Assembly (NCBI GenBank): GCA_947631035.1
Contig: CANRJW010000001.1
Location: 5,254-69,253, forward strand
Direction: 5' to 3'
Source of the DNA: an uncultured Bacilli bacterium
Lineage (GTDB): Bacteria > Bacillota_I > Bacilli_A > RF39 > UBA660
Length of the DNA stretch: 64,000 nucleotides
Shown here: positions 3,766 through 44,300 of the stretch, piece by piece
Position numbering within the stretch: position 1 is the first letter of the stretch
Layout: every line of letters begins with the position of its first letter
Translations under genes and position numbers: made by a program
The notes under the pieces: model-generated
The model's input: only the letters and a program-made list of their open reading frames with translations
Databases searched by the model: none
Told to the model about the DNA's origin: nothing

Positions 3766-5799
3766 TTAAATGGCTAGGACGATACGGAAACTACAATTTC
3801 CCCTCGCAATCCCATCTTCACCGAAAAAAGCAAATAAACCTCTTCGAATAGTATTTTGAAACTGTCCACCACGACAAAGCCACGGATGCGTAGTGTAAAC
3901 AAATACTGCATAATCTTGATAAAAATAACTCCAATGCCATCCTCCGCCAACATTAGTTCCTATAGGTCCTATTTCTCCTATTGCATCTCCTAAAATTCGA
4001 CGATTCCAATGGGTTTGGTCAGCCCAATATTGGTAACTATCATAATATTTAGAATCTGCAAAATCTATTTTTCCTCCTGAGCCATAATCAACTTCTTTAT
4101 TCCCCTCTTGTAACATCACTCCCGCTACATATTCCCATGAACCACCGGACATGTCGAAGATGCCTGTATTATTTTCTGTGGTACTTGCTTTTTGACTTGT
4201 TGGGTATACGTAGGAAACATTATTACTTTCCTTTGGAGTTGTAGTTGCATATTCGTCCTTAGAAAAACCTGTATCAGCTCCATTTATTGCTACTACACCG
4301 GTTACATAATTTTGACTATTATTAACATTTACTTCGGTACATTTACCATTATTACATCTTCCATAAATAGAATTTGTAAGATAAGCAACGGCTCCCCACT
4401 CTGTATTCTTCATCATATGACTTTCTAATTCTCTTTTATACCCATAACTTGTTTGATAGGCATTCGATACGTTTATATTTCTCCATGAATAAACATTTGG
4501 TTTTATGATAACTTGTTCTGATTTATTTTCATTTTTTTGGGCATCTTCCACTTTTGTAGCTCCTTTATATCCTGTTTCAAACTTGCCGACCCACAATCCT
4601 TTAGCTCCTTCAAAGGCTAGAAATGCTGGATGCGTCATCCAATCTCCATAGCCACAACTTCCTCTTTCTCCTGATTCTGTTGGGGTAGTACATTCATTTG
4701 GATTTCCATCATCAGTATCTTCTATTCCAAATCGTATCTCAATTGATGTCGTTGGACCTTTATTGGAAAGTTCACTGCTGGCTGGTAATGCTTCAGTATA
4801 TTCCCCTAACTTATCGTCAAATAACTTATAACTATATTTTGGTATCCATACAAAATAACTTTCGATATCTTTCTCTTCTATTGTTGCCCCTACGTCTGGT
4901 TCTTCTGCTCCATCTGTTAGTATAACAGCATTCGCCCATCTCTTCTCTTCATAGTTATACCAATCATGGGATAAATCTGCTCTAGTAACTGTTCCATTAT
5001 CACTTATAATGACAGGTATGAGTTTATCGTTTGGAGTTGGTTCTACTTCTGCTAGTGTATTGGTTGATAGTAAAGCAATTTCTCCTTTACTATCTTGATT
5101 TCCTAATACTGGGTCTGCTCCATGTAATTTTGGTTCATTATAAACTGCTAAATCATTCATACTTCCATCTACTACTATTTTACTAATAAAAATTTTATTC
5201 ATTGCTTGGTCTTCTATTGTAACACTTTCGTCCATCCATAGTTTTATTGTATATGTTTTTGTATCACTCTCATTTAATGTTCCTTTTATTAATTCTCTTG
5301 CTTCTACTGATTTATAATCTTCTCCTTCATAGGTACTTTTTCCTTTTGGATAATTGAATAGTAACTCTTTTTGGCCTCCATTAAACTCTACGGCTATATA
5401 TTCACTATTTAATAAATTATCTTCTTGGCCGTTTTTTTCCATTAACTTCTCTAGTTTTACTGTATAATCCACTGTTGTTTTACATATATTTGTGATTTTA
5501 AATTGATAAGGTGTCAAATTCTTGGCATCTTTATCTTCTATAGGATAAGTCTTTTCTAAACGGATATCATTTTTTTCTTCTGTTAAACTTAATTTTAAGC
5601 AACCACTTTGTACTTCATTAATTCCAGTTTGAGTTGCCGTTGTTGTCCACCAGGCATAACTTGTTCCTACTAAAATTAATAATCCTGCTATAATTCCTAT
5701 AAATATTATTTTGATTCGTCGTTTGGGTTCCTTTCTATTATTATCTAATATACCCCCCCCCCAGACGACTATTTTCACTGGTTGGGAGGTTCTTTTCAA
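3766..5799 (-). CDS. Phase-variable surface-protein candidate: SipW-type leader plus TasA/camelysin-like N-domain, with a C-terminal FGE-sulfatase (SUMF1/DUF323)-like domain. Coordinates follow the TTG-initiated track ORF; the Shine-Dalgarno-linked ATG at 5809 is out of frame across the G10 tract
   Basis: GTSYAWWTTTA resembles the TasA GGTWAAFND SipW-cognate motif; LKLSL..PIEDKD..YQFKITNI pattern as in TasA; C-terminus NTEWGAVAYL / SGGSWEYVAG / LCRGGQFQNTIRRG resembles FGE-sulfatase motifs; paralogous to 11848..13596. Confidence 0.6.
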   Translation of the reverse strand: MKRTSQPVKIVVWGGGILDNNRKEPKRRIKIIFIGIIAGLLILVGTSYAWWTTTATQTGINEVQSGCLKLSLTEEKNDIRLEKTYPIEDKDAKNLTPYQFKITNICKTTVDYTVKLEKLMEKNGQEDNLLNSEYIAVEFNGGQKELLFNYPKGKSTYEGEDYKSVEARELIKGTLNESDTKTYTIKLWMDESVTIEDQAMNKIFISKIVVDGSMNDLAVYNEPKLHGADPVLGNQDSKGEIALLSTNTLAEVEPTPNDKLIPVIISDNGTVTRADLSHDWYNYEEKRWANAVILTDGAEEPDVGATIEEKDIESYFVWIPKYSYKLFDDKLGEYTEALPASSELSNKGPTTSIEIRFGIEDTDDGNPNECTTPTESGERGSCGYGDWMTHPAFLAFEGAKGLWVGKFETGYKGATKVEDAQKNENKSEQVIIKPNVYSWRNINVSNAYQTSYGYKRELESHMMKNTEWGAVAYLTNSIYGRCNNGKCTEVNVNNSQNYVTGVVAINGADTGFSKDEYATTTPKESNNVSYVYPTSQKASTTENNTGIFDMSGGSWEYVAGVMLQEGNKEVDYGSGGKIDFADSKYYDSYQYWADQTHWNRRILGDAIGEIGPIGTNVGGGWHWSYFYQDYAVFVYTTHPWLCRGGQFQNTIRRGLFAFFGEDGIARGNCSFRIVLAI
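5753..5762. repeat. Homopolymeric C10 (G10 on the coding strand) tract inside codons 13-16 (WGGG) of the TasA-like gene; candidate slipped-strand phase-variation switch
   Basis: Read directly; the only long G/C run in an ~30% GC window apart from its twin at 13550-13559. Confidence 0.9.
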
Positions 5800-5995
5800 A
5801 TTCTTTCATTTGTTTTTCTCCTCCATATCTTAATCTAATTCTACCACAAATTTTCCTCTTTGTTCAACCAAACTTTTTTACTTTTTCCTATCATTATGCT
5901 ATCTTATATCGTTATGCATGACATTGATATCACTATGCAAGCATAATTTTATCTTAAAATAGTATATTATTGAAATAACCAAGGAGAAAATTTTT

Positions 5996-6178
5996 ATGAA
6001 CAAAGACGTTATATTTGTTAGAATTGATGAAGACTTAAAGAAAAAATTAGACATGATTGCCCTAGAAGAACAAAGAAGTTTAAATAATTTGGTAGTTCGA
6101 ATTCTTACTAAATTTATTATTGACTATGAAAAGAAATCTTTAAATGAAAAAGCAACCACCGAAACAGAAAAATCATGA
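5996..6178 (+). CDS. Small ribbon-helix-helix (CopG/Arc-like) DNA-binding protein candidate
   Basis: 60 aa; VIFVRIDEDLKKKLDMIALEEQRSLNNLVVRIL fits a beta-strand then helix RHH pattern; AGGAGA RBS; 3' end overlaps the convergent sigma-factor gene by 6 nt. Confidence 0.4.
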   Translation: MNKDVIFVRIDEDLKKKLDMIALEEQRSLNNLVVRILTKFIIDYEKKSLNEKATTETEKS

Positions 6179-6823
6179 TGCATAATATTCACGAATTTTA
6201 TCTATTCCTTTTTTTTCGTAACGTGAGACCATGACTTGGGTCTTTTTTAATTTTCTTGCTACTTCACTTTGAGTCATATCTTGAAAGTAACGATACTCTA
6301 AAATCTTTCGTTCTTCTCCACTTAATTGTTCTAGCCCTTCTAAAATGACTAATCTGTCTTCTATCGACATATTTTCATTTAAAGGAATGGTTTCATATAA
6401 ACTTCTTTCATCATCCATACTTTGGTCTAAACTACTTACCATGATAGACCCAGCAATAATGGCTTGTTCAAGTTCATAGATATCCATTTCTAAGAATTGA
6501 GCTAGTTCTTCATTTGTGGGAATTCTTCCCCATTTTTGAGCAAGACTATATCTAGAAGTTTCAATCGATTTATAAAGACGTAAATAATCACTACTTACTT
6601 TGATTTGTTTTTGCATAGCAAGTTTATACATTTCACCAAAAATAGATTTAAAAGCATAACTTGAAAACTTTGCCAAACTTTCTTCTTTATAATTTTTAAT
6701 AGCTTTTAAAATACCCAATACTCCGGCTTGGTATAAGTCTTCTCTTTCAATTCCATAAAAACTTCGATTGGCAATTTTATAAATCAATCCGGTATTTTCT
6801 TCAATTATTTTTTCAGTTGTCAT
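6173..6823 (-). CDS. Sigma-70 family alternative sigma factor (SigF/SigG/SigB-like)
   Basis: Region 2 (LIYKIANRSFYG..EDLYQAGVLGILKAIKNY) and region 4 HTH (ERKILEYRYFQDMTQSEVARKLKKTQVMVSRYEKKGIDKIR). Confidence 0.8.
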   Translation of the reverse strand: MTTEKIIEENTGLIYKIANRSFYGIEREDLYQAGVLGILKAIKNYKEESLAKFSSYAFKSIFGEMYKLAMQKQIKVSSDYLRLYKSIETSRYSLAQKWGRIPTNEELAQFLEMDIYELEQAIIAGSIMVSSLDQSMDDERSLYETIPLNENMSIEDRLVILEGLEQLSGEERKILEYRYFQDMTQSEVARKLKKTQVMVSRYEKKGIDKIREYYAS

Positions 6824-6831
6824 TTGTCCTC

Positions 6832-7173
6832 CTATATTTTAATAGTCTTTAAAGCAGAGAGTTCATTTTCTAATTCTTGAATATGTAAGTTCTTTATCCA
6901 CTTTTTAATGGTATCTTTTGCTTCACAAATATAAATTTTTCCTTTATTGATACGAATCGCACTTTTGGTATTTAAAAGAGCATTGACACCACTTTCATCG
7001 ATAGAATCTAATTCATATAAATTGTAAACTAAATATTTTATTTTATGCTTTAAAAGAACTGGAACTAAATAATTATTTAATTCGTAAGTCTTTTTGCTAG
7101 TTAAATTACCTTTCAAGCGAACAAATAAAATACCTTTATTGTACTCTACGTCCATTTGAAACATTTTTATCAC
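6832..7173 (-). CDS. STAS-domain anti-sigma-factor antagonist (SpoIIAA/RsbV-like)
   Basis: 113 aa; the LYELDSIDESGVNALL segment keeps the phosphorylatable Ser context (DxSG); immediately upstream of the sigma gene. Confidence 0.65.
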   Translation of the reverse strand: MIKMFQMDVEYNKGILFVRLKGNLTSKKTYELNNYLVPVLLKHKIKYLVYNLYELDSIDESGVNALLNTKSAIRINKGKIYICEAKDTIKKWIKNLHIQELENELSALKTIKI

Positions 7174-7257
7174 CTGCTATATGAATATAGTAAATTTTTA
7201 TAACTTTTTAAACACTTTCGACAAAACTTGTCAAAAGAAGTGGGTATAAAAAAAAAT

Positions 7258-7908
7258 TCATGCATTATGAATTTTCCTTTGTTTAATGTCTTTTATTTTT
7301 TTCGTCTTTCTTTTTTTTAAGAAAAGGAGAAGGAAAAAGAATAGTCCCATACTAAGTGTAGGAAGTACAATTAAAAACTTTTCTAATATATAAAACATAG
7401 GTGTATCAAAAGTATCTAAATAATAGATGCCAAAAATATCTTTACTATTTTCTTCTGTTACAATATCTTGTTCGAGAATTTTATTTAAACTGGACATGGC
7501 AGTCAGTTGTAAATCTTTGGGAATCACTTTGGCAATTCCTTTAATGGTAACACTACTTGGTGAATTTGTATCCACAGTATTATAAGAATACGTATAAATT
7601 TCTTCTAATTGCTTTCTTGTTTCTTCATTTAAGTCTACGAGATAAACATTTTTAGCATCCCAAATAAAATACGTTTTATGTTCTACTCCAGCATAATCAT
7701 GAATGGCAAAATAATCGGTCATAACAGAAGCTTCGATTTTAGCATATTGATTGCTTTCCTTGACATTTTTTAATTCTTGGGCAGTCGTAAATGTTTTTGC
7801 ATTCGTAAAATAAATATAGAAAAGAAAAACAACACTAATGGCAAGAAAAAGAATTCCCAAACAAAAGCATTGTTGATTGTTGATTTGTACTATTTTTCCT
7901 ATTTGCAT
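7258..7908 (-). CDS. Membrane protein of unknown function (N- and C-terminal TM helices flanking an extracytoplasmic domain)
   Basis: Hydrophobic segments CLGILFLAISVVFLFYIYF and LIVLPTLSMGLFFFLLLFL; no recognisable motif. Confidence 0.4.
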   Translation of the reverse strand: MQIGKIVQINNQQCFCLGILFLAISVVFLFYIYFTNAKTFTTAQELKNVKESNQYAKIEASVMTDYFAIHDYAGVEHKTYFIWDAKNVYLVDLNEETRKQLEEIYTYSYNTVDTNSPSSVTIKGIAKVIPKDLQLTAMSSLNKILEQDIVTEENSKDIFGIYYLDTFDTPMFYILEKFLIVLPTLSMGLFFFLLLFLKKRKTKKIKDIKQRKIHNA

Positions 7909-11847: not shown

Positions 11848-13596
11848 TTAATTATTTCCTAAATAGGTAATTCTAGCATAACCATCGCCTTGTTTAGCAT
11901 TTTGACTAATAGCCTCGCTACTTACACTATCCGTAGTGTAAGTTTTTGTTTCGTCTGCATCACTTGTTGTACATTGGTAGCAATACATAGCTTTATTAGT
12001 TAGAAGAGGATTTCCAATGTAGCCAGAACCTCCTCCACCTCCAGCGTGTCCTCGTGAAGAGCCCCCTCCACCGAAGTATCCTCCACCTCCTCCGGCGCCA
12101 CCACAACCACCAATACTTGAATCTATTCCGCATCTATCCCCCTCAATATAGTAATAATTACCTCCTTGGCCAAATTTACCCTTTGCATTCTCACTTTTTT
12201 TATGAATTTCATATCCACCCTCGTTTTGGCTTCCTCCAATACCAGTATAATTAGTTGAAGAATTATTAGGATGAGTATTTACAATATTATTATATCCATC
12301 TTTTCCTTTGAATCCACCACCTGAGCCACCGTAAATATCATTACCATAACTATAAGTTCCACCATTACCTCCGCCACCTCCAGCAACAATTAAGACTTGT
12401 TCTTTTTGAGATTCTAATGTTGATAACAATCCTGAAACTTTAGCTATATGGGTAGCGCCTCCGCCACCAAAACCAATTTGGCTTACTGTATTTCCTGTTC
12501 CTCCACCATTATATCCACCAAAATATTCATTATTATTTCGTATATTTGAACCTTGCCCTCCAACATTAACAAATAATGTATCACTTGAAGAAATTGTATA
12601 TTCTCCTACTGAATAACCACCTAGACCACCTATATTTTTGGCTTCTTCACTTTCTGCACCACCCTGAGCTCCCCATACTTCTAATTTGTAATTTCCTTTT
12701 GGTAAACTGATGGCTTCTTCTTTTCCTGTATAATCAAAATCAATGGTTGTGTCTTTCTCTAGTGTGGTAAACTCTATGTTACAACTTACTTGATTTTTCT
12801 CGATTCCGGTTATCTCGACTCCCCATGTTTCTTGATTCCATTTTCCACTTCCTTTATCACATTTTACTTCGACTGCATAGTTTTCTTCTTCCTTGTTTGG
12901 CATTTCTTCTTGCATCTTTCCATCTACTAACATTGCTAATTGTATATCTCCATCTTGTGCTATTTCATTTTGGTCTCCTGTTATTACTACCTTGGCTTCA
13001 AACTTTCCGTTTTGACTATCATTATCCGCACTTTCGTCCATCCATAATCTTACTTCATGTTCTACGTTTGCATAGGCAGTTAGAGTTCCTTTATATATGT
13101 TATAGGCTTCTATCGCTTCATAGTCTTCTGTCTCTATCTTTGATGTACTATATTCTTCTGTTAATTTTTTTTTAACTTTTTTATCTATCTTGACCGCGAT
13201 ATTCTTTGATTCGATTCTTTTTCCATCTATTTGTAGTACCTCTATATTTACTTTATAATCTACTCCGGTATTACAGATGTTTCTTATTCTAAAATGAAAG
13301 GGTTCTAGTTTTTCTCCTTCTTTATCGGTTAAAGGATAAGCTTTTTTTAAACTTATAGCTTCACTTAATTCGTCCATTTCTATTTTCAAGCAACTTGTTC
13401 CTAAGATATTCATTTCGTTTTGTTTTGTTGTTGTGGTCCACCATGCATAACTAAAAGACACTACTGTTATGAGTGTTACAATACTTATTAAACTTACTAC
13501 TATTTTCTTGAGTCGTCTTGGTTCCTTTCTATTATTATCTAAATAATAACCCCCCCCCCAGACGACTATTTCCACTGGTTGGGAGGTTTCTTTCAA
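11848..13596 (-). CDS. Paralog of 3766..5799: SipW-type leader plus TasA/camelysin-like N-domain, fused to a C-terminal ALK-type glycine-rich domain (GAQGG family). TTG-initiated track ORF; the Shine-Dalgarno-linked ATG at 13606 is out of frame across the G10 tract
   Basis: N-terminus MKETSQPVEIVVWGGG..SYAWWTTTT and the LKIEMDE..PLTDKEGEKLEPFHFRIRNICNTG TasA-like pattern; C-terminus LEVWGAQGGAESEE..GGLGGY..VGGQGS..GGGGG blocks typical of bacterial/ALK glycine-rich domains. Confidence 0.6.
   Translation of the reverse strand: MKETSQPVEIVVWGGGYYLDNNRKEPRRLKKIVVSLISIVTLITVVSFSYAWWTTTTKQNEMNILGTSCLKIEMDELSEAISLKKAYPLTDKEGEKLEPFHFRIRNICNTGVDYKVNIEVLQIDGKRIESKNIAVKIDKKVKKKLTEEYSTSKIETEDYEAIEAYNIYKGTLTAYANVEHEVRLWMDESADNDSQNGKFEAKVVITGDQNEIAQDGDIQLAMLVDGKMQEEMPNKEEENYAVEVKCDKGSGKWNQETWGVEITGIEKNQVSCNIEFTTLEKDTTIDFDYTGKEEAISLPKGNYKLEVWGAQGGAESEEAKNIGGLGGYSVGEYTISSSDTLFVNVGGQGSNIRNNNEYFGGYNGGGTGNTVSQIGFGGGGATHIAKVSGLLSTLESQKEQVLIVAGGGGGNGGTYSYGNDIYGGSGGGFKGKDGYNNIVNTHPNNSSTNYTGIGGSQNEGGYEIHKKSENAKGKFGQGGNYYYIEGDRCGIDSSIGGCGGAGGGGGYFGGGGSSRGHAGGGGGSGYIGNPLLTNKAMYCYQCTTSDADETKTYTTDSVSSEAISQNAKQGDGYARITYLGNN
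13550..13559. repeat. Homopolymeric C10 (G10 coding) tract in codons 13-16 of the second TasA-like paralog
   Basis: Read directly; same position and length as the tract at 5753-5762. Confidence 0.9.
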
Positions 13597-13693
13597 ATTC
13601 TTTCATTTGTCTTTTCCTCCTCTATTATTACTTTTTATTCTACTCTCTTTTTCGTCTTTTGACAAGACATGAAAAAAAGGCCTATACAAAAGC

Positions 13694-24451: not shown

Positions 24452-27400
24452 CTAAACATTTGTGTCTTTTGCTTCAAAGTCAGTAAGTAATTTCACTTTA
24501 TAGAGTTTGGCATTATTAATGACATAACCATAATCATTTGGTAATTCTTCTCGATCATCTCTTGTAATTTTAGAAATTTTAAATAACGTTTGATCAGCAA
24601 TTCCACTACCAATCCATATTCCTTTGGTTAAATCAGCACCAACTTTAAACCATTCTTCATAAGTAAATGGTTTAATAACATCTGGATTATCAACAATAAC
24701 AAAAGATACTAAACCGATTTGGGCATCTTTTTTGATACACTCTCCAAACCTTTTTTTAATTTCCTCACTCAATTTATTCATAAAAGCATAGAATCCGTAA
24801 ATAAAGCAATACATTTTCTTTTGATTTTGAATGGATTCTAACTCCATATGATTTTGTTCATAAATGGTATAAACTTGGTCAATATAATCAAGGATTTTGG
24901 TAAGATTTTCTTCGATATTTTTAGTAATCAAATTCGTTGTTAAATTTTCATTTGTTAAGGCATGCTCCGAAGCATTAAAGAAATAAAGATTAGCGTACTT
25001 TTCATAACAAATTTGATTTATAAAAGCATTCAGAACTGCATCGACATTTTCTATGTCATAAGATGCAATAAAGTGAACAGCATTTTTAGAGAAGTTATAT
25101 TTTTCAATAGCAAGTGTATCTTTATTAACACCAACTGCAATAGAAAAATCATGAGTTAAAGCACTTTCAATGCTTGCAAAATTAACTGTCTCTGGTAATA
25201 CTGGAATTTTTTTCGCGCGATATTGAGAAGCTTTATTAAATTTTGTACAAATTTCTCTTATATATTCACTAGTATTTTCTTCTTTAATACTTGCTGTTTG
25301 AAATTCATAAATCTTATCTCTTTTGAATAGTCCTCTTCCTTTTATTTTAGCAGGTATCTTACCATGAACATTACCAAGAATACTTGAATAATCATAGTCG
25401 TTGTTTTGTTGTAGAGCATAAATCAAATTAAAGTTTTGCTTTAAACGCATACGAACACTGCTATCGCTCGTTGCTGTAAGAACAAAACAGATTCCATAAC
25501 GAGTAGCTTCTCTTGTAATTGTTGTTAACTCTTCATTCAAATCTTCAAAGTTTTCCAGAAAAGCTTCATAATTGTTCATTACAACGACAATATTTGGAAG
25601 AATCTTACCACTAGAACGTAAATAACTAATATAATTTCCACCAAAACTAGCAAATAATTTCTTACGAGATTGTAATTCTTCTTGAATCATTTTAAATAGA
25701 TTCATTATTTTATCCGTATCACTTAAGTATGCAATATCTCCAACATGTGGACAAGCTTCAAAATTTCGTAATGTCTCTGAACCAAAATCTAATAAATAGA
25801 AATTTAATTCTGCTACGGAATAAGTTGTCATTCCCGAGTAAATAAAGCTTTCCAAAAATTCTTCTTTACCACTATCAGCAATACCATAGATTAAAGCATT
25901 CCCATCTTCAAATAAAGGCATGGTAAGTAAATATTGATTTTGGCTATCTGGGTCATCATATTCTCCAATAATAGGATTTAATATATAATTTTGACGTTTA
26001 AAGTTATATTTGCTTTTTAAATTATCGATATAAATTTTGGCTGGTATTTTTTCTAACCATAATTTTTTAATTTGAATTTTTTCCGTTCTAGCAAGATCGC
26101 TTAAATATTTTACAATGTTAGAAAGTTCCTCACCATTGGCATTCACCACAATTTCTTTTTTGCTGTCTTTACTCATAGTGGTAATGCCAATATTATTAAT
26201 CATACTAACCGAAGTATCCACATCTTTTTTAAACATTTGACTTGGTATATATCTAGCTCCAGCCCAAGCTGATTGTCCTAAAGTAAAGACCTCGTCATAG
26301 CCCACTTGCAAATAAAATCTTCCGGTTTTCTTTAAATAAGCCGCATCGGGTTTTTTTAGGACTTCTTGAGAGTCTCCTGTATCTTGGACTTTTAAGCAAA
26401 TACGAAAACGGGTATTTGACCAAATTTGTTGGTCGACCACACCACCCGGTTTTTGCGTAGCTAGTATTAAATGGACTCCTAAACTACGACCCACACGGGC
26501 AACAGAAATTAATTTATCCATAAATTCCGGTTGTTGTTCTTTTAATTCAGCAAACTCATCACTAATAATGAAGAGATGGGCAATTTGTTCTTTTCCTGGT
26601 AAACGTCCTTCACGCCACAACTTTTGGTATTTATAAATATCAATTGTACTTTCATTGGTCATAACTCTTGCTTCATTAAATTCTCTTTGACGTCTTTTAA
26701 TTTCACTTTCGATAGAAGCAAGAGAACGCGTTAATTCACTTCCATCTAAATTGGTCATAATTCCCGCCAAATGGGGAAGTGTATAAGAATCATTTTGAAA
26801 AGCTAGAGCAAGTCCTCCACCTTTATAGTCAATTAAAATCACTTGCACTTCGTAAGGGCTATAATTCACTGCTAAAGAAAGCACATAAGTAATAATAAAT
26901 TCTGATTTTCCACTACCAGTAGTTCCGGCAATTAAACCATGAGGTCCATGATATTTTTCATGTAAATCCAAACTAATGACTTCTCCACCTTTACCTATTC
27001 CCACAGGAGTTTGTAAAGAAAGCATTGGATTACTTTTTTTCCATCGTTCTAATGAATTTAATTGTTCAACTTTCCCCACTTGATACATTTCTAAGAAATG
27101 ATAGACATCCGGTAGACTACTTTCTGTTTCACTTTTTATCTCGACTTTAATATTAGCAAGTTCTTTACTGCAATTATAAAGTTCGTCTAGAGAAGATAAA
27201 TCCATTTTAAAACTTTGGGCTTGTTCATTTAAAACACTTTTAAAAATAGCACATTCGTCTTGATTTACATGAATAAAGTTTTTACATTCATTAGGACAAG
27301 CAGAAACCCTGTCAACAAGCATAATAATACTAAATCCGTAGTTTTCAGAACTACCTAAAATATTTTTAATTAAATCATAATTATCAATAGATTTAATCGC

Positions 27401-29050
27401 ATCTGTAACAAGAACATAATGAGGAACATGTCTTTCTTTTTCCTTACTTTCACGTCTTTCATGGTAAATTTTATCTAATTGATAAATCATTTCTCTATAT
27501 TCGTCATTGGTAGAACCAAAAAAACGAAAAGTATGATCATTTGACCAACTATGAGGTAAGGTTTTTACATACTCCCATAAGGATTCATTTTCTGAAGAAG
27601 TAAAGGTAACAATTTTTACTTCATCATAACTATAATTACTCATGATTTGTAATAAAATTCGGTCAGCTAATTCTTTTGTTAAAGACGGACTTCCGACAAT
27701 TCCCGTTGCTTTATTCTCATAAAAAGAATACGTAATAGGAACATCTCTTAAAATTCGTTTCGTCTCCCCTAGTTCATGCACTAAATCAAGTAAATTATCT
27801 TCCGTTAGAGAAAAATGTTCTTCAGGGTATTGTACTTCAATCTCCATGGGAATATTGCCAAGTCCTACAGGAAGGTCTAAAAAATCTTCGTCGCCGATTC
27901 TTCTTTGCCACAAACGCACGTTATGAGCTCTTATAATATCAAGACATTCTGAAACACTTAAATTATTGGAAACCAATGAACTTTTTTGTTTATTCATTTC
28001 TATTTCAATTTCTTTTTCTTTTTTGTCTAAGTATTTTTTATAAAGTTTTTGACGTTTCTTCTCCCATCTTTTATCGGAAAATTTTTGATAAACTTTCGTA
28101 AGTGTTGGCCAAAGTAGAGAACTGGCAAGCATAACAATACACATAGCAATAGAGGTTGCAGAGTCACTTACTGTTCTTTCTCCTTTGTTAATGGCACTCA
28201 TTGTACTCATAAGCATCACAACGCTCATCATGGACATCGTAAGCATCGGTCCAACAGTTAAAATTGCTGGCGTTTGATTTTCCTCTTTTTTAGAAGGTGG
28301 TGCATCAATTTTTAAAACAAATTTATTGGTTCTTTCATAAAATCTCGGGGTACGATAAAAATAATCTTCGCCATAATAATCTTCGGTTAATTCTTCATAC
28401 TCTTCATTAAAATTAGAAATTTCTCCGGTACAAGTTGCATATAAAGCGGAAGGAGCCACAAGTCCACCCGGATTGTTTACCAAGAAATAATCAGCACCCT
28501 CCTTGCGCATTAAAATGAGTTTTAACCCAAAAACAAAAATAATATCCCCATACTCAATTTTTTTAATATGACGAACACGCTTTTGATTGACATAAACAAA
28601 ACTATTTTCATCAACTAATTTTAACATATAAGATTTCTCTTGTTTTTCAATAGTAAATAGGGTATTACTTAGACCTGCTAATTGATAATTAATTTTATTG
28701 TTATCCCCATTTCCCACTGAAACACTAGTATCTTTTAACATATTAAATTCTCTAAAAGATTCATCATAGAGTGGTGCACAATAAAGAAAATATTTTTCTT
28801 GTTTATAATTGTTTTTAATAGAAAAGAATTTCCATTCTTCCAATTTTACATAGGGAACCATTACTTCTTGATTATCGATAATAAAGGCTTCACGATTACT
28901 ATAGAGTATCCATCCTTCTTCTGTTGCATCAATATTCATTAAATTGATTTTACGGCCATTTTCAAAGTCACTAATCCAATAACTTCCTCTTCTGTTTTTG
29001 GGAAGTGTAAACACAATCAATTTGTTTTCTTTTATAAGAGTTATTTGCAT
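24452..29050 (-). CDS. essC: Type VII secretion system (T7SSb) FtsK/SpoIIIE-family ATPase EssC/YukB-like
   Basis: 1532 aa; N-terminal FHA-like region, two TM helices (~aa 255-310), three P-loop ATPase modules (GLIAGTTGSGKSEF.., LIYGIADSGKEEF.., third degenerate); the block TPVGIGKGGEVISLDLHEKYHGPHGLIAGTTGSGKSEFIITYVLSLAV is near-identical to YukB/EssC. Confidence 0.9.
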   Translation of the reverse strand: MQITLIKENKLIVFTLPKNRRGSYWISDFENGRKINLMNIDATEEGWILYSNREAFIIDNQEVMVPYVKLEEWKFFSIKNNYKQEKYFLYCAPLYDESFREFNMLKDTSVSVGNGDNNKINYQLAGLSNTLFTIEKQEKSYMLKLVDENSFVYVNQKRVRHIKKIEYGDIIFVFGLKLILMRKEGADYFLVNNPGGLVAPSALYATCTGEISNFNEEYEELTEDYYGEDYFYRTPRFYERTNKFVLKIDAPPSKKEENQTPAILTVGPMLTMSMMSVVMLMSTMSAINKGERTVSDSATSIAMCIVMLASSLLWPTLTKVYQKFSDKRWEKKRQKLYKKYLDKKEKEIEIEMNKQKSSLVSNNLSVSECLDIIRAHNVRLWQRRIGDEDFLDLPVGLGNIPMEIEVQYPEEHFSLTEDNLLDLVHELGETKRILRDVPITYSFYENKATGIVGSPSLTKELADRILLQIMSNYSYDEVKIVTFTSSENESLWEYVKTLPHSWSNDHTFRFFGSTNDEYREMIYQLDKIYHERRESKEKERHVPHYVLVTDAIKSIDNYDLIKNILGSSENYGFSIIMLVDRVSACPNECKNFIHVNQDECAIFKSVLNEQAQSFKMDLSSLDELYNCSKELANIKVEIKSETESSLPDVYHFLEMYQVGKVEQLNSLERWKKSNPMLSLQTPVGIGKGGEVISLDLHEKYHGPHGLIAGTTGSGKSEFIITYVLSLAVNYSPYEVQVILIDYKGGGLALAFQNDSYTLPHLAGIMTNLDGSELTRSLASIESEIKRRQREFNEARVMTNESTIDIYKYQKLWREGRLPGKEQIAHLFIISDEFAELKEQQPEFMDKLISVARVGRSLGVHLILATQKPGGVVDQQIWSNTRFRICLKVQDTGDSQEVLKKPDAAYLKKTGRFYLQVGYDEVFTLGQSAWAGARYIPSQMFKKDVDTSVSMINNIGITTMSKDSKKEIVVNANGEELSNIVKYLSDLARTEKIQIKKLWLEKIPAKIYIDNLKSKYNFKRQNYILNPIIGEYDDPDSQNQYLLTMPLFEDGNALIYGIADSGKEEFLESFIYSGMTTYSVAELNFYLLDFGSETLRNFEACPHVGDIAYLSDTDKIMNLFKMIQEELQSRKKLFASFGGNYISYLRSSGKILPNIVVVMNNYEAFLENFEDLNEELTTITREATRYGICFVLTATSDSSVRMRLKQNFNLIYALQQNNDYDYSSILGNVHGKIPAKIKGRGLFKRDKIYEFQTASIKEENTSEYIREICTKFNKASQYRAKKIPVLPETVNFASIESALTHDFSIAVGVNKDTLAIEKYNFSKNAVHFIASYDIENVDAVLNAFINQICYEKYANLYFFNASEHALTNENLTTNLITKNIEENLTKILDYIDQVYTIYEQNHMELESIQNQKKMYCFIYGFYAFMNKLSEEIKKRFGECIKKDAQIGLVSFVIVDNPDVIKPFTYEEWFKVGADLTKGIWIGSGIADQTLFKISKITRDDREELPNDYGYVINNAKLYKVKLLTDFEAKDTNV

Positions 29051-30894: not shown

Positions 30895-33800
30895 TTATCC
30901 TCCTATAACACCAATGCTCTGAATATAATTTTCATAATCCACATGATTATCAAACATTTTTTTGCCATTTTTTTGGTCATATACTATATAATCCGTACCA
31001 TTATCTTTAGATACTGTAATAATACAAAGTGGTATTGTTTTATCATCAGCTTTGATATATTCCGTTGCAGTGCTCACCTTTATATTATCTTGTTTATTAA
31101 ATAAAATATATTTCAAATTGCTAAAATAAACTCGAGCTTCAAATCCATCCATATATTCTGGAATTGGGGTATTTTCAAAATCTTTAATTAAATCAACAGT
31201 ATCAGTATTCTCCGTACTAGGTTTAAATACATTGTTGGCCTTTTCTAAAAGTTTATCAAAATATTCATTTTCTTTAACGCCAATTTTTTTATCCACATTT
31301 GCCCATGTTGTTCCATATTGTGCTAATACAGAATTATCCAAATTTACTAATCTTTTATGTGATAATTTATTCATATATCCATATACAAAACCAGCTGTAG
31401 CAAAACCACATTTGCAATTAACTAAATCATTTGATTTATTGATAGCATCGGTTGCATCAGCAACAATAACGCGATTTTCATCTACTTTAACTTCAACCCA
31501 TTTATGGGAACCCACACTATCACCACCAATAATGGATACATTTTTTTCTTCTATTCCACTAGCAATTAATAACTCGGCATATAACTGACTCCATCCTTTA
31601 CAAATGACATTATTGCTCTCTAAATTTTGAAAGTTAAGATTTTTATTATAAATAGTTGCCTTAATACCTAAATTTTCTTCATTATCATCCATAAAAGTTG
31701 TATCATAATGTACCCGTTTATTCAATTCATAATAAATTTTACGGGATTTTTCTAATATGGACCATTTTGAATCAATTAGTGACAATATTTCGTATTTTAT
31801 GTAATTTAAATTTTCTGTTGTAGTTGAATTGGTTGGATTTGAAATATCCCATTTTTCTGATAATTCTGCGCCTTCTATTTTATGTGCAACCTTATCATAC
31901 CAATCTCTAGCAACAATTTTTGATATTTTTTTCTCTTTTATAAAGTTGGCTAAATAAGAATTATCCCTGAAGTTTTCATAAGTATCATACTCGTATTTAG
32001 AAACTTTTTTATATTTTAGTTTACCTTCCTGTTGAACTAAAACAAAATATTCTTTTGAAGTAAATGCATTTTTTAAATTCCAATCCCCCTCATATATAAT
32101 AGCACTATCGTCTAGATTTCGAACCTTTAATTTTGAACTAGTAATAGTTTCTAAACCAGGATTTACTTTAAGAGCTGTAATTTTCACAGGTAAATCATTT
32201 AAATTTGTAGCCACTGCTCCTACTTCTGGAATACCAGCAAAAAATATTTTTTTACCAAAATTCATTACAGAATTACTATTTTTCAATAATTGACTCGACA
32301 TAATTTTATCAATATCTTTTTCACTAGAAAAATAATATAATCCTTCTTTTAAAATTTTATCATTCAAACCTTTAAAATAATTCGTGTCAGTATATATAAA
32401 TCTATGCATAGTCGAAATTAATTTATTGGACATTGCATTTAATACATTATGGCTTTGATAATTTGTTAATAACACATTCAAGTCAGGTAATTTCTTTTCA
32501 TTATTTAATGGTACTGTTACTTCTTCAGTAATATTTTCATCCGTATTTAAATTTTCTTCATTTGAAATAGTTATTGAATCTACTCGGATATCACTTTTAT
32601 CTTCTTTTAATTCTTCAGCATTATTTTCTTCTAATATGTCTGTAGCTTCATCAGCCTCTAGCACTTCTATTACATTATCATCCAATTTTTTGCTACTGCT
32701 AATAGAATTTTCTGCTATTTTGACATCAGGTCCTAAAGATTCAAAAGTTTTCTTTAACATATCACTGAACTCATCACCGAATATTTCTTTAAGAGTGGTT
32801 AAATATTTCTTATCTGTTAAAATTAAACTCGTATAAGTTGCAAACATCTCATGAAAAGAAATTAAATCACTTCCAATAGGATGATTTTCATAATATTCAG
32901 CACTATGACCATATCGAAGACGATATTTTTCATTTTGATTAAATGAAATCTCCGGATTTTTATAAACACTACAAATAATACTAGATAAATCTATTAAATC
33001 AGGGTATTTTTTAGACATATTCTCATAGGTTAGTTTTGTTATCTTATCGGATACCTCATAAGTAGCAACTTGCTCGCGTAATTCGGCACCACTTATATCT
33101 TTCAAATGTTCTTTTAAAGAAGGATGACGTTCAAATAAATTTTCTTTAATTTGCGTAAAATTTGTTTTATTGTAATTTTGTAATTCTTTAGTAACTACTT
33201 CATCTAATGTTGATACATTATATTGTTTCATGACACTTTTTTGGGCATCATTTAAACATTCATTGCGAGATTTTTCAATTTGTTCTTGTAATGAAATAAT
33301 TTTTTCTGAATTGACATTTTTTATAGCGCGTCCGATTATATTTTGATAATCGTCAGGTAATTTTTCATTTAATACTTTTTCAAAGAAGGCATGTCCCATT
33401 TCATGAAATAAAGCCCTAGAATTTTTCTTATCCGCATTAAGATAAACATTTCCGTTGTTTTCATAACTTCCTTCATTTGTTTCATAAAAATGAATTTGAT
33501 CTTTCATATTTAAAAGTAATTCTCTTATTGCTGTTGCTTCTGTATTGCCTTTTTTGGCAGAATCTAAAAGATAATCACTTACAAGTTTGACAAGTTTTGG
33601 ATCACTTTTTCCATCCTGAGTAAGCGTTTTTATAAAATGGCTTTCTTTCGATTCAAATATTGACTTTATCTTATTTTTGATTTTATCATCAATTTTTAAA
33701 TCCAGTATTGTATTCCCTTTTGAATTTGTTCTAATATTATATTTACTAGTATCCACTTTAGATAATTTTAAAATATTTTCTATAACAGAATAATCTATTT

Positions 33801-36800
33801 TTTTATCCGTTGTTTCAAACGTCATTTCATACATTTTAACGTTTCTTTGTCTTTGTTCTATTCCAAGAGCAAATCGTGCTACTGCCAAATTCGTTTCCTT
33901 TGTGGAAGGTGTTTTTGTTAAATTTTTAATAAAGCCTAATTTTTGCATTTGTCTTAATAACATAAAAGTATTTGCTTGACTTGTTGTTCCATATTTATGA
34001 TTTTTTTCTAATTGTTGGAAAGCATTTAAAGAACGAACCAAAAAATATTCTTGGGGATTATCTGAAAATCTAGATTTTATAAAATCATTATAAGAAAATA
34101 CATTTTGATTTAATTTTATAATTTGTTCCGTTTTACCATCAGCAGTCTGCATTTTAGAATCAGCAGTCATTAAAATACTATCTTTTATATTATTATTATA
34201 AAAACCATCATTCATTAAACTGATACTTTTTAAGGCAAGTGGTACACTTAAAACAGCCCCAATTGGACCAGAAGAAACTAAACTCGTGAAAGCAACAAGA
34301 CCTGCAGTTCCCCCTATCAGTTTTGCTCCTCGAACTGTAGCATTTTTAACTTGCTTAATTTTTAAAGGTTTAGAATCGTTTACTAACTCTAAAGTATTTT
34401 TATTTTCAAATAATGAATTTAAATAACTATCTTTTATCGATTGAACATTTTTTTTGTTATTAACATATTCTTCTATTTTCTTTCCTTCTTCGGTATTTTT
34501 ATAATGATCATATACATCTTTAGAAACTGATTCGTAGACTAACTCATCTTGTTTTTGTTTTAATACAAAATATTCTTTTGAAGCTTCCTGATTTGTCAAG
34601 TCAAATTTTCCATCATAACTAATGGCATGATCATCTAGATTTCGTATTTTTAACTTTGAACTTTCAATAATATCCGTTGTAGGCATAACTTTAACAGCCG
34701 TTGCTGTTAATGGCAAGTAATCCAAATTGGTTGCAAAAGCACCTACCTCTGGAACTCCTGAAAAGAAGAAAGTTTTTGGATTTCCATAAGAGGCATTAAT
34801 ACCGCTTGGCTTAATATAACCACTTTGCAGAATTTGATCTGCTGCACTTGTAAAATGATACAATCCATTCTTTTCTATTCCTTCATTTACACCAACAAAA
34901 TTATTTGTATTTTTGTATACATATTTTTTTAAATTTGACTCTAAAGTAAGTCGTATGGATTGTGGTAATGAAAAATTATTATATTTTAATCCATTTATTT
35001 TATCTTGAGTTTGAACTTTAGGCGTTTCCAATTTTTGTTTGTTCATTTGGGTATTTACTTCACTTATGACTAAATTTGGTGAATTTAAAATTCCACCTGT
35101 AATAGCTCCATAAATAGCACTCTTTTTGGCATTTTCAGTTACTTCTTGTAAATCAATATCTTCCTTAAAAATTCCATATCGTGTTAAGGCATCTACATAT
35201 TCTTGGGTTCCTTCTTCCACCCCTTCTTTTAACATGGATTGAGCAAACGTTTTTAATCCTGTTACATTAACATCACTTAATCCTGGTATTGCTCCTAAAA
35301 ATCTTTCCATTGTAGTTTCTGATACCCCTGATACCACTCCATATAAAACAGAATTTTTTAAATCCTTGCCTTCTACCATAGCACTATGGTAACTGCTACC
35401 TCCAGCACTAATTCCCATACTCACACTACCTACTGCTGGAGTACAAAGAATTCCTAAGGCCATACTTGGTATCATATTACCAATACTTTGTGATATTTCA
35501 TAATTATTATCAAGTATTTTATTGTACTTTTCCGTATTTTGTAAAGCTTCTAGGATATACATAGATTCATATTCATCTTCACTATAAATGCGCGAATCAC
35601 TTGCTAAATTATTTTCAATTCCTAAAAGGGAAGATGCATATGCCCCTACTCCTTTTATAGCATTTGCAAATCCGCCAAAAAAAGATTCTGTTCCATCTCC
35701 TAAACCTTTTCCTGCTACTTTTGCATGGTTTTCTAAAAAACTTGATAATTTCTTGGTAATTTCTTCGTTTGCTTTTTCATCTTCTAAACCATTTAAAAAT
35801 TTTTGGGCTTTTAAATATCCATTCATTTGATTGACATTATTTTTAGTAGCCAATAAATATTCTTCTGCTGCTTCTTCTCCTCTTTTTTCCCATAAATAAT
35901 TATACATTTTTGCTAATTCTGGATTGCTTTTGGAAGCTTTTAATAAACTTTCTAATTCTCCTTTATGTTCGATTGTAATTTGATCACGATTCGCATATTG
36001 GTTTAACGTTCTAAATTGTTCTAATGGACTTATCTCTTTCTTACCGATATCTTTAATACTGGCTTCTTTATAGTTATAATTTTGGTAATCTTCTGTCAAT
36101 GGTAATAATTCATACAAGGAACAACTTTTTAACTCTTTTGTTTTTTCAATAGAAGCTTCTAGTGTTGCTTTATCACTTTTTAGTTCATTTAAACGCTTGC
36201 TAAATTCTTGATAATTGGCAAAATTGGTTGATGCTTTTACAGCATTTGTTAAATCGGATTCACTTTTATTAACCGTTGCATACATCTTTTTGACATCACT
36301 ATCTTTTGCTTGACACAATTTTAATAATTCGGTTGTACTTAATGTTGCTAATTCCTTTTTGGTTATTCCCAGTTCTTTTAATTTAGAATCGGTACAGCCA
36401 AAATTTTTATAATCACTTATAAGTTTATTAATGTCTGCTTCTACCAATCTTTTTTGATTTTGGGCAAGTTCATTTGCTCGAGCAAATTGTTTTTCAAACG
36501 GAAGTAATTTGTTTAATTCTTCATTTACTGTGTCTAAAAGCCCATCATATTCCTCTATTTCTTTTTGATACATTTCTTCATATTCATGAAGTAAACTTTG
36601 AAAGGCATCACTTTCTACATTTTCCATATTGTCATATTGGGTATTATAAGCACCTAAATTCATTTTAAAATTTGCAAAAACAGCATTTAAGTTGTCCATG
36701 CCAAAAGAAGTTTTTTGAATTGAATTCAAATTGGGAATTATTAACGAAGAATGCTCTATAGGAAAAATTTTTTCGTCATATAATTTTAGTTTTGATAAAG

Positions 36801-37116
36801 AATTACGATATTTTCCAACAATACCCCTTGTGCTTGAATCAAATAATCCTTTTTGTCCACTATTACTTAAATTTTCTTCTATAGCCTCTAAATCAAAAGC
36901 ATATTCTCTTAAATACTCTGCAACATTTCCAATATTCTTAGCAATAGTTATATAATTTTTATTTATTTTTCCTAAATAAGTAGATACAGGTGTCCCGCTG
37001 GAACTATACGAATTGGGTATAAAATTTTTTTGTTTATTTTGATAGTAAGTTTGATAGTTTTTCATTGTATTAATATTGGTTGTAATAGCACTAGTGCTGG
37101 CAAATAACTTATCCAT
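30895..37116 (-). CDS. Giant (~2074 aa from ATG 37116) multi-domain polymorphic-toxin candidate in the T7SSb locus: helical LXG-like N-terminal region, glycine-rich PT-TG-like segments, duplicated ~150-aa domain, HExxH zincin motif, C-terminal transglutaminase-like Cys-His-Asp domain
   Basis: Track ORF starts at TTG 37155, but ATG 37116 has an AAGGA RBS. Gly-rich segments FFGGFANAIKGVGAYASS..MGISAGGSSYHSAMVEG and LIGGTAGLVAFTSLVSSGPIGAVLSVP. Internal repeats GLYHFTSAADQIL..FFFSGVPEVGAFATNL..SSKLKIRNLDD vs GLYYFSSEKDIDKI..IFFAGIPEVGAVATNL..SSKLKVRNLDD. HEMGH encoded at 33391-33405. C-terminus CKGWSQLYAELLIASGI ... GSHKWVEVKV ... VIVADATD resembles a transglutaminase/papain-like triad. Confidence 0.6.
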   Translation of the reverse strand: MDKLFASTSAITTNINTMKNYQTYYQNKQKNFIPNSYSSSGTPVSTYLGKINKNYITIAKNIGNVAEYLREYAFDLEAIEENLSNSGQKGLFDSSTRGIVGKYRNSLSKLKLYDEKIFPIEHSSLIIPNLNSIQKTSFGMDNLNAVFANFKMNLGAYNTQYDNMENVESDAFQSLLHEYEEMYQKEIEEYDGLLDTVNEELNKLLPFEKQFARANELAQNQKRLVEADINKLISDYKNFGCTDSKLKELGITKKELATLSTTELLKLCQAKDSDVKKMYATVNKSESDLTNAVKASTNFANYQEFSKRLNELKSDKATLEASIEKTKELKSCSLYELLPLTEDYQNYNYKEASIKDIGKKEISPLEQFRTLNQYANRDQITIEHKGELESLLKASKSNPELAKMYNYLWEKRGEEAAEEYLLATKNNVNQMNGYLKAQKFLNGLEDEKANEEITKKLSSFLENHAKVAGKGLGDGTESFFGGFANAIKGVGAYASSLLGIENNLASDSRIYSEDEYESMYILEALQNTEKYNKILDNNYEISQSIGNMIPSMALGILCTPAVGSVSMGISAGGSSYHSAMVEGKDLKNSVLYGVVSGVSETTMERFLGAIPGLSDVNVTGLKTFAQSMLKEGVEEGTQEYVDALTRYGIFKEDIDLQEVTENAKKSAIYGAITGGILNSPNLVISEVNTQMNKQKLETPKVQTQDKINGLKYNNFSLPQSIRLTLESNLKKYVYKNTNNFVGVNEGIEKNGLYHFTSAADQILQSGYIKPSGINASYGNPKTFFFSGVPEVGAFATNLDYLPLTATAVKVMPTTDIIESSKLKIRNLDDHAISYDGKFDLTNQEASKEYFVLKQKQDELVYESVSKDVYDHYKNTEEGKKIEEYVNNKKNVQSIKDSYLNSLFENKNTLELVNDSKPLKIKQVKNATVRGAKLIGGTAGLVAFTSLVSSGPIGAVLSVPLALKSISLMNDGFYNNNIKDSILMTADSKMQTADGKTEQIIKLNQNVFSYNDFIKSRFSDNPQEYFLVRSLNAFQQLEKNHKYGTTSQANTFMLLRQMQKLGFIKNLTKTPSTKETNLAVARFALGIEQRQRNVKMYEMTFETTDKKIDYSVIENILKLSKVDTSKYNIRTNSKGNTILDLKIDDKIKNKIKSIFESKESHFIKTLTQDGKSDPKLVKLVSDYLLDSAKKGNTEATAIRELLLNMKDQIHFYETNEGSYENNGNVYLNADKKNSRALFHEMGHAFFEKVLNEKLPDDYQNIIGRAIKNVNSEKIISLQEQIEKSRNECLNDAQKSVMKQYNVSTLDEVVTKELQNYNKTNFTQIKENLFERHPSLKEHLKDISGAELREQVATYEVSDKITKLTYENMSKKYPDLIDLSSIICSVYKNPEISFNQNEKYRLRYGHSAEYYENHPIGSDLISFHEMFATYTSLILTDKKYLTTLKEIFGDEFSDMLKKTFESLGPDVKIAENSISSSKKLDDNVIEVLEADEATDILEENNAEELKEDKSDIRVDSITISNEENLNTDENITEEVTVPLNNEKKLPDLNVLLTNYQSHNVLNAMSNKLISTMHRFIYTDTNYFKGLNDKILKEGLYYFSSEKDIDKIMSSQLLKNSNSVMNFGKKIFFAGIPEVGAVATNLNDLPVKITALKVNPGLETITSSKLKVRNLDDSAIIYEGDWNLKNAFTSKEYFVLVQQEGKLKYKKVSKYEYDTYENFRDNSYLANFIKEKKISKIVARDWYDKVAHKIEGAELSEKWDISNPTNSTTTENLNYIKYEILSLIDSKWSILEKSRKIYYELNKRVHYDTTFMDDNEENLGIKATIYNKNLNFQNLESNNVICKGWSQLYAELLIASGIEEKNVSIIGGDSVGSHKWVEVKVDENRVIVADATDAINKSNDLVNCKCGFATAGFVYGYMNKLSHKRLVNLDNSVLAQYGTTWANVDKKIGVKENEYFDKLLEKANNVFKPSTENTDTVDLIKDFENTPIPEYMDGFEARVYFSNLKYILFNKQDNIKVSTATEYIKADDKTIPLCIITVSKDNGTDYIVYDQKNGKKMFDNHVDYENYIQSIGVIGG

Positions 37117-37226
37117 ATTAATACATCCTTTCTTCTTAGAGGCATAGAAAAACAACCCTACTTTATTATTACTTAAATCTTATCATATTTTCAGGTTGTC
37201 TTCAATCATTTTAAATTCTTTATCTA

Positions 37227-41204: not shown

Positions 41205-41246
41205 GCAAAAAAAATGTAAAGAATTAGACTTTACTTTACATTTTTC
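41205..41246. terminator. Rho-independent terminator after leuS, separating it from the T7SS operon start (atgtaaag-N12-ctttacat; flanking A/T runs, bidirectional)
   Basis: Read directly. Confidence 0.55.
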
Positions 41247-44039: not shown

Positions 44040-44300
44040 AAGAAAAAACACAGCATTTCTTAAGGACGAAAATGCCGTGGTACCACCTTAATTCCTAGTA
44101 AAACTAGCTTTCTTCATCTTCTATAGGAGATGACCCATTAAACTCCAAAAGCAAGTTCGTAAATTTTATTTGTTTACTTACACCCACCGTAAACTCTCTT
44201 TAAAATAAAGGTTTTACTACTACTCTTTTTTCAACGCTTTTAAGTATTATATTAAATTTTTCTTTTTTTTTCAATAGATTTCTTTTCATAACGAAAAAAA
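44040..44300 (-). promoter_or_regulatory. T-box riboswitch leader (tRNA-Leu expected) with terminator/antiterminator, upstream of the small membrane ORF-leuS unit
   Basis: Minus-strand AATTAAGGTGGTACCACGGCATTTTCGTCCTTAAGAAATGCTGTGTTTTTTCTTTTTT contains the T-box consensus (AANNNGGGTGGNACCGCGG-like), then GCATTT..AAATGC terminator helix and a U-run. Confidence 0.6.

Follow-up and report, generated by a model that had tools for sequence, protein, structure and literature searches.

In this study, we analysed a 64-kb window of DNA (64,000 nucleotides of contig CANRJW010000001.1, from an uncultured Bacilli bacterium), to the whole of which all coordinates refer, and concluded that two related genes on its minus strand, here called gene 1 and gene 2, are probably contingency loci undergoing phase variation driven by slippage at the DNA level, with both copies OFF. 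In each gene a strong Shine-Dalgarno (SD) sequence and an ATG open a short leader that runs into ten consecutive G's (G10), and the long open reading frame (ORF) that follows, referred to as the body, lies in the +1 frame relative to that ATG. Homopolymer phase variation is textbook knowledge in Neisseria, Haemophilus, Campylobacter, Helicobacter and the mycoplasmas.

Reading frames of gene 1 and gene 2

The features of gene 1 are as follows.

5838..5867, minus strand: promoter-like site, TTGAAC, 18 nt, TG-n-TAGAAT (consensus scan, 9/12 matches, TG present)
5818..5824, minus strand: SD sequence GGAGGAG, read from the sequence, 8 nt 5' of the ATG
5809-5807, minus strand: start ATG, after the SD and 8 nt
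5741..5809, minus strand: leader frame with G10, consisting of the ATG, 22 codons in all (MKEFEKNLPTSENSRLGGGYIR) and a TAA stop at 5743-5741
5753..5762, minus strand: G10 homopolymer (C10 on the plus strand), the candidate switch (sequence, run scan and shuffles)
3766..5799, minus strand: body ORF, 677 codons from a TTG, in the +1 frame relative to the ATG

Codons 1-16 of the gene 1 leader read MKEFEKNLPTSENSRL, and the G10 follows directly: it begins with the last base of codon 16 and fills codons 17-19, whereas a first-pass annotation of this DNA had placed it in codons 13-16. With G10 the ATG frame ends in CTG GGG GGG GGG TAT ATT AGA TAA, that is, after 22 codons; the tail reported earlier (GGG GTA TAT TAG, with a stop after 21 codons) would need G11. 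The core of that annotation was borne out by the sequence, its translation and frame analysis: the SD-linked ATG is out of frame with the long ORF, the 677-amino-acid ORF is open only from a TTG 10 nt downstream, and a run of nine or twelve G's (G9 or G12) would bring ATG and body into a single frame, to give ..SRLGGGILDNNRKEP.. in sequence. With G9 the coding sequence of gene 1 would span 3766-5809, and the junction peptide expected across the fused leader and body is ..SRLGGGILDNNRK.. in sequence. The promoter-like site probably acts as the promoter of gene 1, and the block from GTAGAAT to GGAGGAG was seen again 5' of homologous leaders in loci L002, L025 and L091.

The second cassette-bearing gene (11848-13606, minus strand) lies 7.8 kb from gene 1, is related to it and is out of frame likewise.

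13616..13622, minus strand: SD sequence GAGGAGG of gene 2, 9 nt 5' of the ATG
13535..13606, minus strand: gene 2 leader frame with G10, ATG at 13606 (MKEFERNLPTSGNSRLGGGLLFR, TAA stop)
13550..13559, minus strand: second G10 homopolymer (run scan and shuffles)
11848..13596, minus strand: gene 2 body ORF, 582 codons, +1 frame, directly downstream of pnp

The G10 of gene 2 follows 16 leader codons, as in gene 1, with the same +1 shift. The leaders of the two genes share 94% DNA identity over 66 nt, whereas the proteins, which have the same N-terminal architecture, are only 35% identical over 340 amino acids, and therefore the leader and G run form a conserved cassette and not an accident of one gene. 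This 66-nt leader block is the sole substantial repeat in the 64 kb. The earlier description of a lone locus thus holds for gene 1, which is one of two such genes in the window and a member of a cassette-bearing multigene family.

The two G10 runs are the only G/C runs longer than 6 in the 64 kb, the next-longest being 6. None of 100 dinucleotide shuffles of the window produced a G10, which the real sequence contains twice, and base composition predicts 0.0015 G/C runs of at least 10 for the window.

Run length and frame in related genomes

A scan of one genome per species with the pattern AACCTCCCAAC-N12-21-CTGGGGGG returned 56 loci, 8 of which were chance matches with G6 in unrelated taxa, the remainder being leader cassettes. 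The cassette was found in at least 8 uncultured gut metagenome-assembled genomes (MAGs) from rabbit and mouse, labelled Bacilli, Tenericutes or, in two MAGs, Muribaculaceae, and one MAG carried 22 loci. Run length was then set against the frame of the long downstream ORF for the 51 loci with a complete run.

G6: 1 locus, body in frame
G8: 4 loci, body in frame 2
G9: 7 loci, body in frame
G10: 38 loci (75%), body in frame +1
G11: 1 locus, body in frame 2

The run was pure, uninterrupted G at all 51 loci (an interrupted, or 'locked', G10 run would read, for example, GGAGGTGGCG), and the body frame followed its length exactly. Bodies of 220-661 codons were open in all three frame states, and the OFF frames stopped within 1-5 codons past the run. 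The cassette precedes bodies with at least three N-terminal architectures and several C-terminal domains, and its own architecture is unusually uniform. Further out-of-frame G10 copies were seen in L002, L091 and L094, and a distant lineage showed the same design with a shorter run, G6 in frame in L089 and G7 out of frame in L090. A scan of metagenome contigs with the leader pattern gave 29 matches, all of them chance, in unrelated and mostly GC-rich DNA; the same scan of viral contigs gave 0 matches. The matches in L013, L018, L020, L027, L029, L033 and L038 lie within ~280 nt of a contig end, where a repeated cassette or run-length heterogeneity may have broken the assemblies.

The position of the genuine start decides whether the run matters at all. 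Outside the gene 1 subfamily, the first body-frame ATG, GTG or TTG was located 55-463 nt 3' of the run, and because the body frame has no start before that point, the SD-ATG leader is the sole credible start. The leader peptide is translated within the in-frame database proteins P0021, P0033, P0080, P0242 and P0246, the in-frame alleles of P0021 and P0246 being known from protein sequence only. It has to be considered that the gene 1 protein might instead begin at the TTG (5799) or at a body-frame GTG (5778), so that the ATG leader would be a separate mini-ORF and the tract irrelevant. Public gene calls do begin at the GTG (P0001, P0121, P0122), and an N-terminus from there keeps the basic stretch and the transmembrane (TM) helix. 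However, 20 nt separate the SD from the TTG, which lies 10 nt 3' of the ATG, the GTG follows CCUCCCAACCA and has no SD, most other out-of-frame loci have no body-frame start before the TM segment, and in-frame homologs include the leader in the protein. A start at TTG or GTG is very unlikely, and it was rejected on the SD spacing together with the lack of usable body-frame starts elsewhere. The first-pass annotation had named a genuine TTG start as grounds for refuting the switch, and the analysis did not bear it out.

Run lengths at single loci

Protein clusters of at least 90% identity contained pairs with differing called lengths, and both contigs were retrieved for one pair. L092 (ERZ27249481) reads ..AGTCTC-G9-TCATTAGAAAG and is in frame; L093 (ERZ27249363) has the leader of L092 but G10, and here the ATG frame ends four codons further on. 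Identity between the contigs is 98.8% across 2383 nt, a stretch that begins ~35 nt 5' of the ATG, spans the gene and extends into a downstream LysM gene; judged by these sequences, the two samples carry the same locus, one with an ON and the other with an OFF run length. The comparison with related genomes that the first-pass annotation had proposed as a check thus gave runs of G6-G11 among the 51 homologous cassettes and one orthologous locus with G9 versus G10. The polymorphism in run length that tracks the frame and this orthologous pair support its suggestion of a candidate slipped-strand switch that is currently OFF. Two properties of contingency loci were found here: a 5' coding run of hypermutable length (G/C of at least 7-8), and a run length that sets the frame of an intact ORF.

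Beyond ~35 nt upstream of the ATG, the contigs of the pair (L092 1-834 and L093 1-1128) are unrelated, and this break suggests that DNA has been recombined or exchanged at the cassette's 5' edge.

The same data bear on whether the G10 genes are simply broken. If the frameshifts were fixed, these genes would be pseudogenes or recently inactivated, non-reverting copies, as might be thought from the fact that most copies are out of frame and that a few bodies are short (72 codons in L014, 20 in L031 and 6 in L038). Against this, despite a genomic GC content of ~30%, some 20 loci with G10 still have bodies open over 370-661 codons, and the L092/L093 pair carries both G9 and G10. Pseudogenization is unlikely because the sole lesion is always at the run, and we consider fixed frameshifts highly improbable.

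Miscalling of a true G9 as G10 was also weighed, since homopolymers are error-prone and the metagenome contigs have low coverage (2.5-10x). L001 (ENA ERZ27249588), assembled separately from what is essentially the same strain, nevertheless reproduced the G10 of gene 1, differing from the window over 12.8 kb by an 18-nt indel and 6 single-nucleotide polymorphisms, all six in the first 70 nt at the L001 contig end. G10 was moreover found across data sets of different projects, and there is no systematic +1 bias, because single assemblies call G6, G8, G9, G10 and G11. Assembly or sequencing error is therefore very unlikely.

Considering the above results, we have proposed a model of translational phase variation. 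The cassette would comprise its own promoter, a strong SD, the ATG, 16 leader codons and an uninterrupted poly-G run 5' of the membrane-spanning segment. Replication slippage would alter the run by single G's; G9 (or G6/G12) would join the SD-ATG to the body, giving a protein with LGGG in its cytoplasmic N-terminal tail, while at G8, G10 or G11 ribosomes would stop 3-5 codons past the run and no anchored protein would result. Both window copies, at G10, would be OFF in the consensus genome, a state that we read from the DNA. The family of mosaic surface proteins would share the cassette and each member would switch independently, so that a population shows a changing subset. Slippage as the mechanism, and its reversibility, are presumed from the patterns of run length described above. 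The benefit would presumably be escape from antibody or phage, or changed ligand binding.

The predominance of G10 and the predicted leader hairpin

Several observations weigh against this model of phase variation. The gene 1 locus is G10 in both available assemblies, the window and L001, and homolog searches of the protein collection, one of them with the repaired gene 2 as query, yielded no in-frame allele of gene 1 or gene 2. G10, an OFF length, occurs at 38/51 loci, and the body is in frame at 8/51 when 1/3 would be expected (binomial p=0.007). Switching within a population is presumptive, as it is drawn from assembled contigs. Finally, the leader is predicted to form a hairpin with the run, and the stability of this hairpin peaks at G10 (-22.7 kcal/mol, compared with -20.0 for G9, -18.3 for G8 and -21.6 for G11 and longer), which weighs against a simple neutral switch because such a switch does not predict this fit.

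The predicted hairpins of the two genes are located as follows.

5752..5790, minus strand: gene 1 hairpin, in which ACCUCCC-AA-CC pairs with the G run and the next U, with an inner stem CCAGUGA/UCG-CUGG
13549..13587, minus strand: the same predicted hairpin in gene 2

The gene 1 hairpin has a free energy of about -22 kcal/mol and z = -4.4 (111-nt context), and the leader arm that pairs with the whole G run is CCUCCCAACC. All leaders are predicted to fold with ACCUCCC-AA-CC against the run. Natural linkers folded better than shuffled ones in 29/29 leader variants, with a mean z of -2.1. The outer stem is fixed by the search pattern and is therefore not independent evidence for the hairpin, and in the distant lineage the same fold was no better than shuffles (z +0.5 and -1.1). 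Sequestration of the SD by CCUCC was considered and rejected: in the minimum-energy fold it is the G run that takes up CCUCCC, and the SD stays unpaired.

A mutational equilibrium could underlie the G10 mode, as has been suggested for Campylobacter jejuni, in which G9 is the mode and insertion/deletion bias sets the modal lengths of poly-G runs (PMC3401435). Selection against expression could also contribute to it. Since the mode (75%) is G10, decoding from this length may also be leaky or programmed, and the corresponding rival to phase variation is programmed recoding, in which G10 is the normal, functional length and either RNA polymerase drops one G, by hairpin-aided realignment, or the ribosome shifts +1. 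Recoding would then set the fraction of full-length protein with no change in the DNA, and it could also overlie DNA-level switching. The prevalence of G10 across several species, with a correction that is always one G fewer, speaks for recoding, as do the hairpin that is most stable at exactly G10 and the superiority of natural over shuffled linkers in every variant. There is also a precedent in a Roseiflexus insertion sequence (IS) element, in which a stem-loop 5'-adjacent to the slippage motif yields transcripts short of one nucleotide (PMC5009743). Recoding was kept as a rival or an added layer because the loss of one nucleotide is exactly the correction that G10 needs. On the other hand, intact bodies of 400-523 codons in the third frame at G8/G11 exist beside the in-frame G9/G6 alleles, and one shift cannot serve all of them; the limits on the hairpin evidence given above, namely the search-fixed outer stem and the distant-lineage folds, apply here as well; and neither a slow codon nor a stop adjoins the run, unlike classical +1 sites. 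Efficient slippage has, besides, mostly been documented for A/T runs, which counts against recoding. As a whole, recoding appears unlikely.

Similarly doubtful is a two-tier device that includes a landing site for a recombinase, in which the pyrimidine arm CCUCCCAACC matches exactly ten G's and the hairpin formed with the run makes RNA polymerase or the ribosome drop one G at a set low rate. If this were true, each G10 copy would be expressed at a trickle and rare G9 mutants fully, and the cassette would double as a landing site for a serine-recombinase element, uncoupling promoter and gene.

Predicted protein products

The gene 1 product is predicted to consist of a TM helix, a beta-sandwich domain and a C-terminal domain of C-type-lectin/FGE fold. 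Its AlphaFold model, built from a 58-sequence alignment, has a predicted local distance difference test (pLDDT) score of 79.7 and a predicted template modelling (pTM) score of 0.79, and places the TM helix at the N-terminus. The strongest fold match was to a C-type-lectin/FGE domain like that of the variable proteins of diversity-generating retroelements (DGRs). Pfam and NCBIfam returned no match to gene 1, nor did its N-terminal region give one when the threshold was relaxed to E<=10. Its family is very large and unnamed, with 5668 matches, mostly from gut metagenomes; most members begin MKKK.. followed by a TM segment and G-x-SYA-W/Y/L-W, and the long leader is confined to the closest relatives. 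The C-terminus of gene 2 is a glycine-rich ALK/LTK-type domain (PF12810).

It is defensible to regard the gene 1 product as a predicted surface, ligand-binding protein, and surface exposure is likewise presumed for the cassette-borne proteins. The first-pass annotation had called it TasA-like. The surface assignment stands as a prediction, from the TM helix, beta-sandwich and lectin fold, while likeness to TasA is weakly supported at best: neither the TasA/camelysin (Peptidase_M73) profile nor the SipW-type signal model matched gene 1 at E<=10, and no SipW-type signal peptidase or TapA was found among its neighbours. These are an M23 peptidase, a phosphoketolase, a SigF-like sigma factor and a STAS protein. 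The region just upstream of gene 1 (6173-7908, minus strand) holds a SigF/SigB-type sigma factor, a STAS anti-sigma antagonist and a 216-amino-acid ORF without family match, and L001 has the same arrangement upstream of gene 1.

A role as DGR target was also considered for gene 1 and rejected. The C-type-lectin/FGE fold at its C-terminus fits, but no template repeat/variable repeat (TR/VR) pair was found, nor a reverse transcriptase (RT) among the 18 window ORFs scanned, and the 3' end of gene 1 takes part in no repeat within the 64 kb.

Possible mobile-element junctions, and other features of the window

In L003 (1652-3700), the place of the leader, ahead of a G9 run and the body, is taken by the 3' end of a gene for a 664-amino-acid large serine recombinase, and this gene ends 24 nt before the G9. 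In L025 (2300-3459) and L054 (3316-4470, minus strand), from two MAGs, the full leader and G7 or G8 are followed by a ~68-nt conserved foreign end and a C5 DNA methylase gene. To judge from the sequences, L003 on the one hand and L025/L054 on the other resemble the two junctions left by a mobile element inserting into the G run or beside it; the leader/G run may serve such an element as attB, and these may be its attR and attL. Only a 12-nt inverted match (score 25 versus 19 for the control) connects one type of junction with the other. L054 also showed a weak bAvd-like match (E=5e-5), below the curated cutoff.

The remaining features of the window are listed below.

24452-29050, minus strand: FtsK/SpoIIIE-domain protein of 1532 amino acids, near the 2086-codon ORF
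30895-37155, minus strand: ORF of 2086 codons, no Pfam match
37397-38971, plus strand: IS66-family transposase gene, adjoining the 2086-codon ORF and the FtsK/SpoIIIE-domain gene
41245-43650: leucyl-tRNA synthetase gene
44059-44243, minus strand: T-box leader (103.8 bits), upstream of the leucyl-tRNA synthetase gene and ordinary

The region of the 2086-codon ORF, FtsK and IS66 genes has the lowest GC content of the window (27-28%).

Significance

Our literature searches turned up no account of uncultured, spore-forming, low-GC gut Bacilli in which homopolymer phase variation operates as a genome-wide system. The present case is a known kind of switch in a lineage and a protein family for which no earlier description was found. 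In a single genome, one portable cassette (promoter, SD, ATG, 16 codons and G run) would govern as many as 22 mosaic surface proteins, which carry lectin-fold and glycine-rich domains and are plausible targets of IgA or phage. Public annotations begin at the GTG or inside the TM helix because gene callers mis-start or truncate such genes. Metagenomic reads could also show directly which family members are ON or OFF, a pattern that could serve as a marker of pressure from host or phage. Furthermore, the G10 mode and the G10-tuned hairpin raise the question of secondary structure shaping slippage at the DNA or RNA level.

Comparison with known systems

The closest parallels lie in systems where a repeat sets the frame of surface genes. 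As in the opa genes of Neisseria, a multigene family of surface proteins has a promoter for each copy and a repeat in the N-terminal leader that sets the frame, with most copies out of frame. However, the opa genes carry a CTCTT pentamer in the signal-peptide region, and the present cassette a G homopolymer; the host here belongs to a low-GC, spore-forming gut lineage of Gram-positive type, the proteins are unrelated, and the leader is predicted to form a hairpin with the repeat. The vlp (promoter poly-A) and P78 (coding poly-A) systems of Mycoplasma occur in a related bacterial class and are homopolymer-switched surface families with many paralogs. They differ in that the run described here is poly-G in the coding region and would act on translation and not on the promoter, and the products are TM-anchored multidomain proteins and not lipoproteins.

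The contingency genes of C. jejuni (about 29 loci, modal G9) resemble the cassette in their uninterrupted G/C runs of 8-11 in coding regions, their low-GC genome and their sharp mode, which has been attributed to a bias toward insertion in short runs and toward deletion in long ones (PMC3401435). The C. jejuni loci are unrelated and each has its own ON length, whereas here one cassette fixes ON at G9 and the mode, G10, is OFF. In the realignment of the Roseiflexus IS630 transposase, as here, a slippage-prone run has a stem-loop ending at its 5' edge and one nucleotide fewer is needed (PMC5009743); in contrast, that arrangement is fixed and its motif is T5C5, while the present run is polymorphic in length and known from DNA alone. 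The DGR variable proteins (TaqVP, TvpA and Mtd) differ in kind, as the variation of the cassette-borne proteins would be between on and off and not a diversification of sequence.

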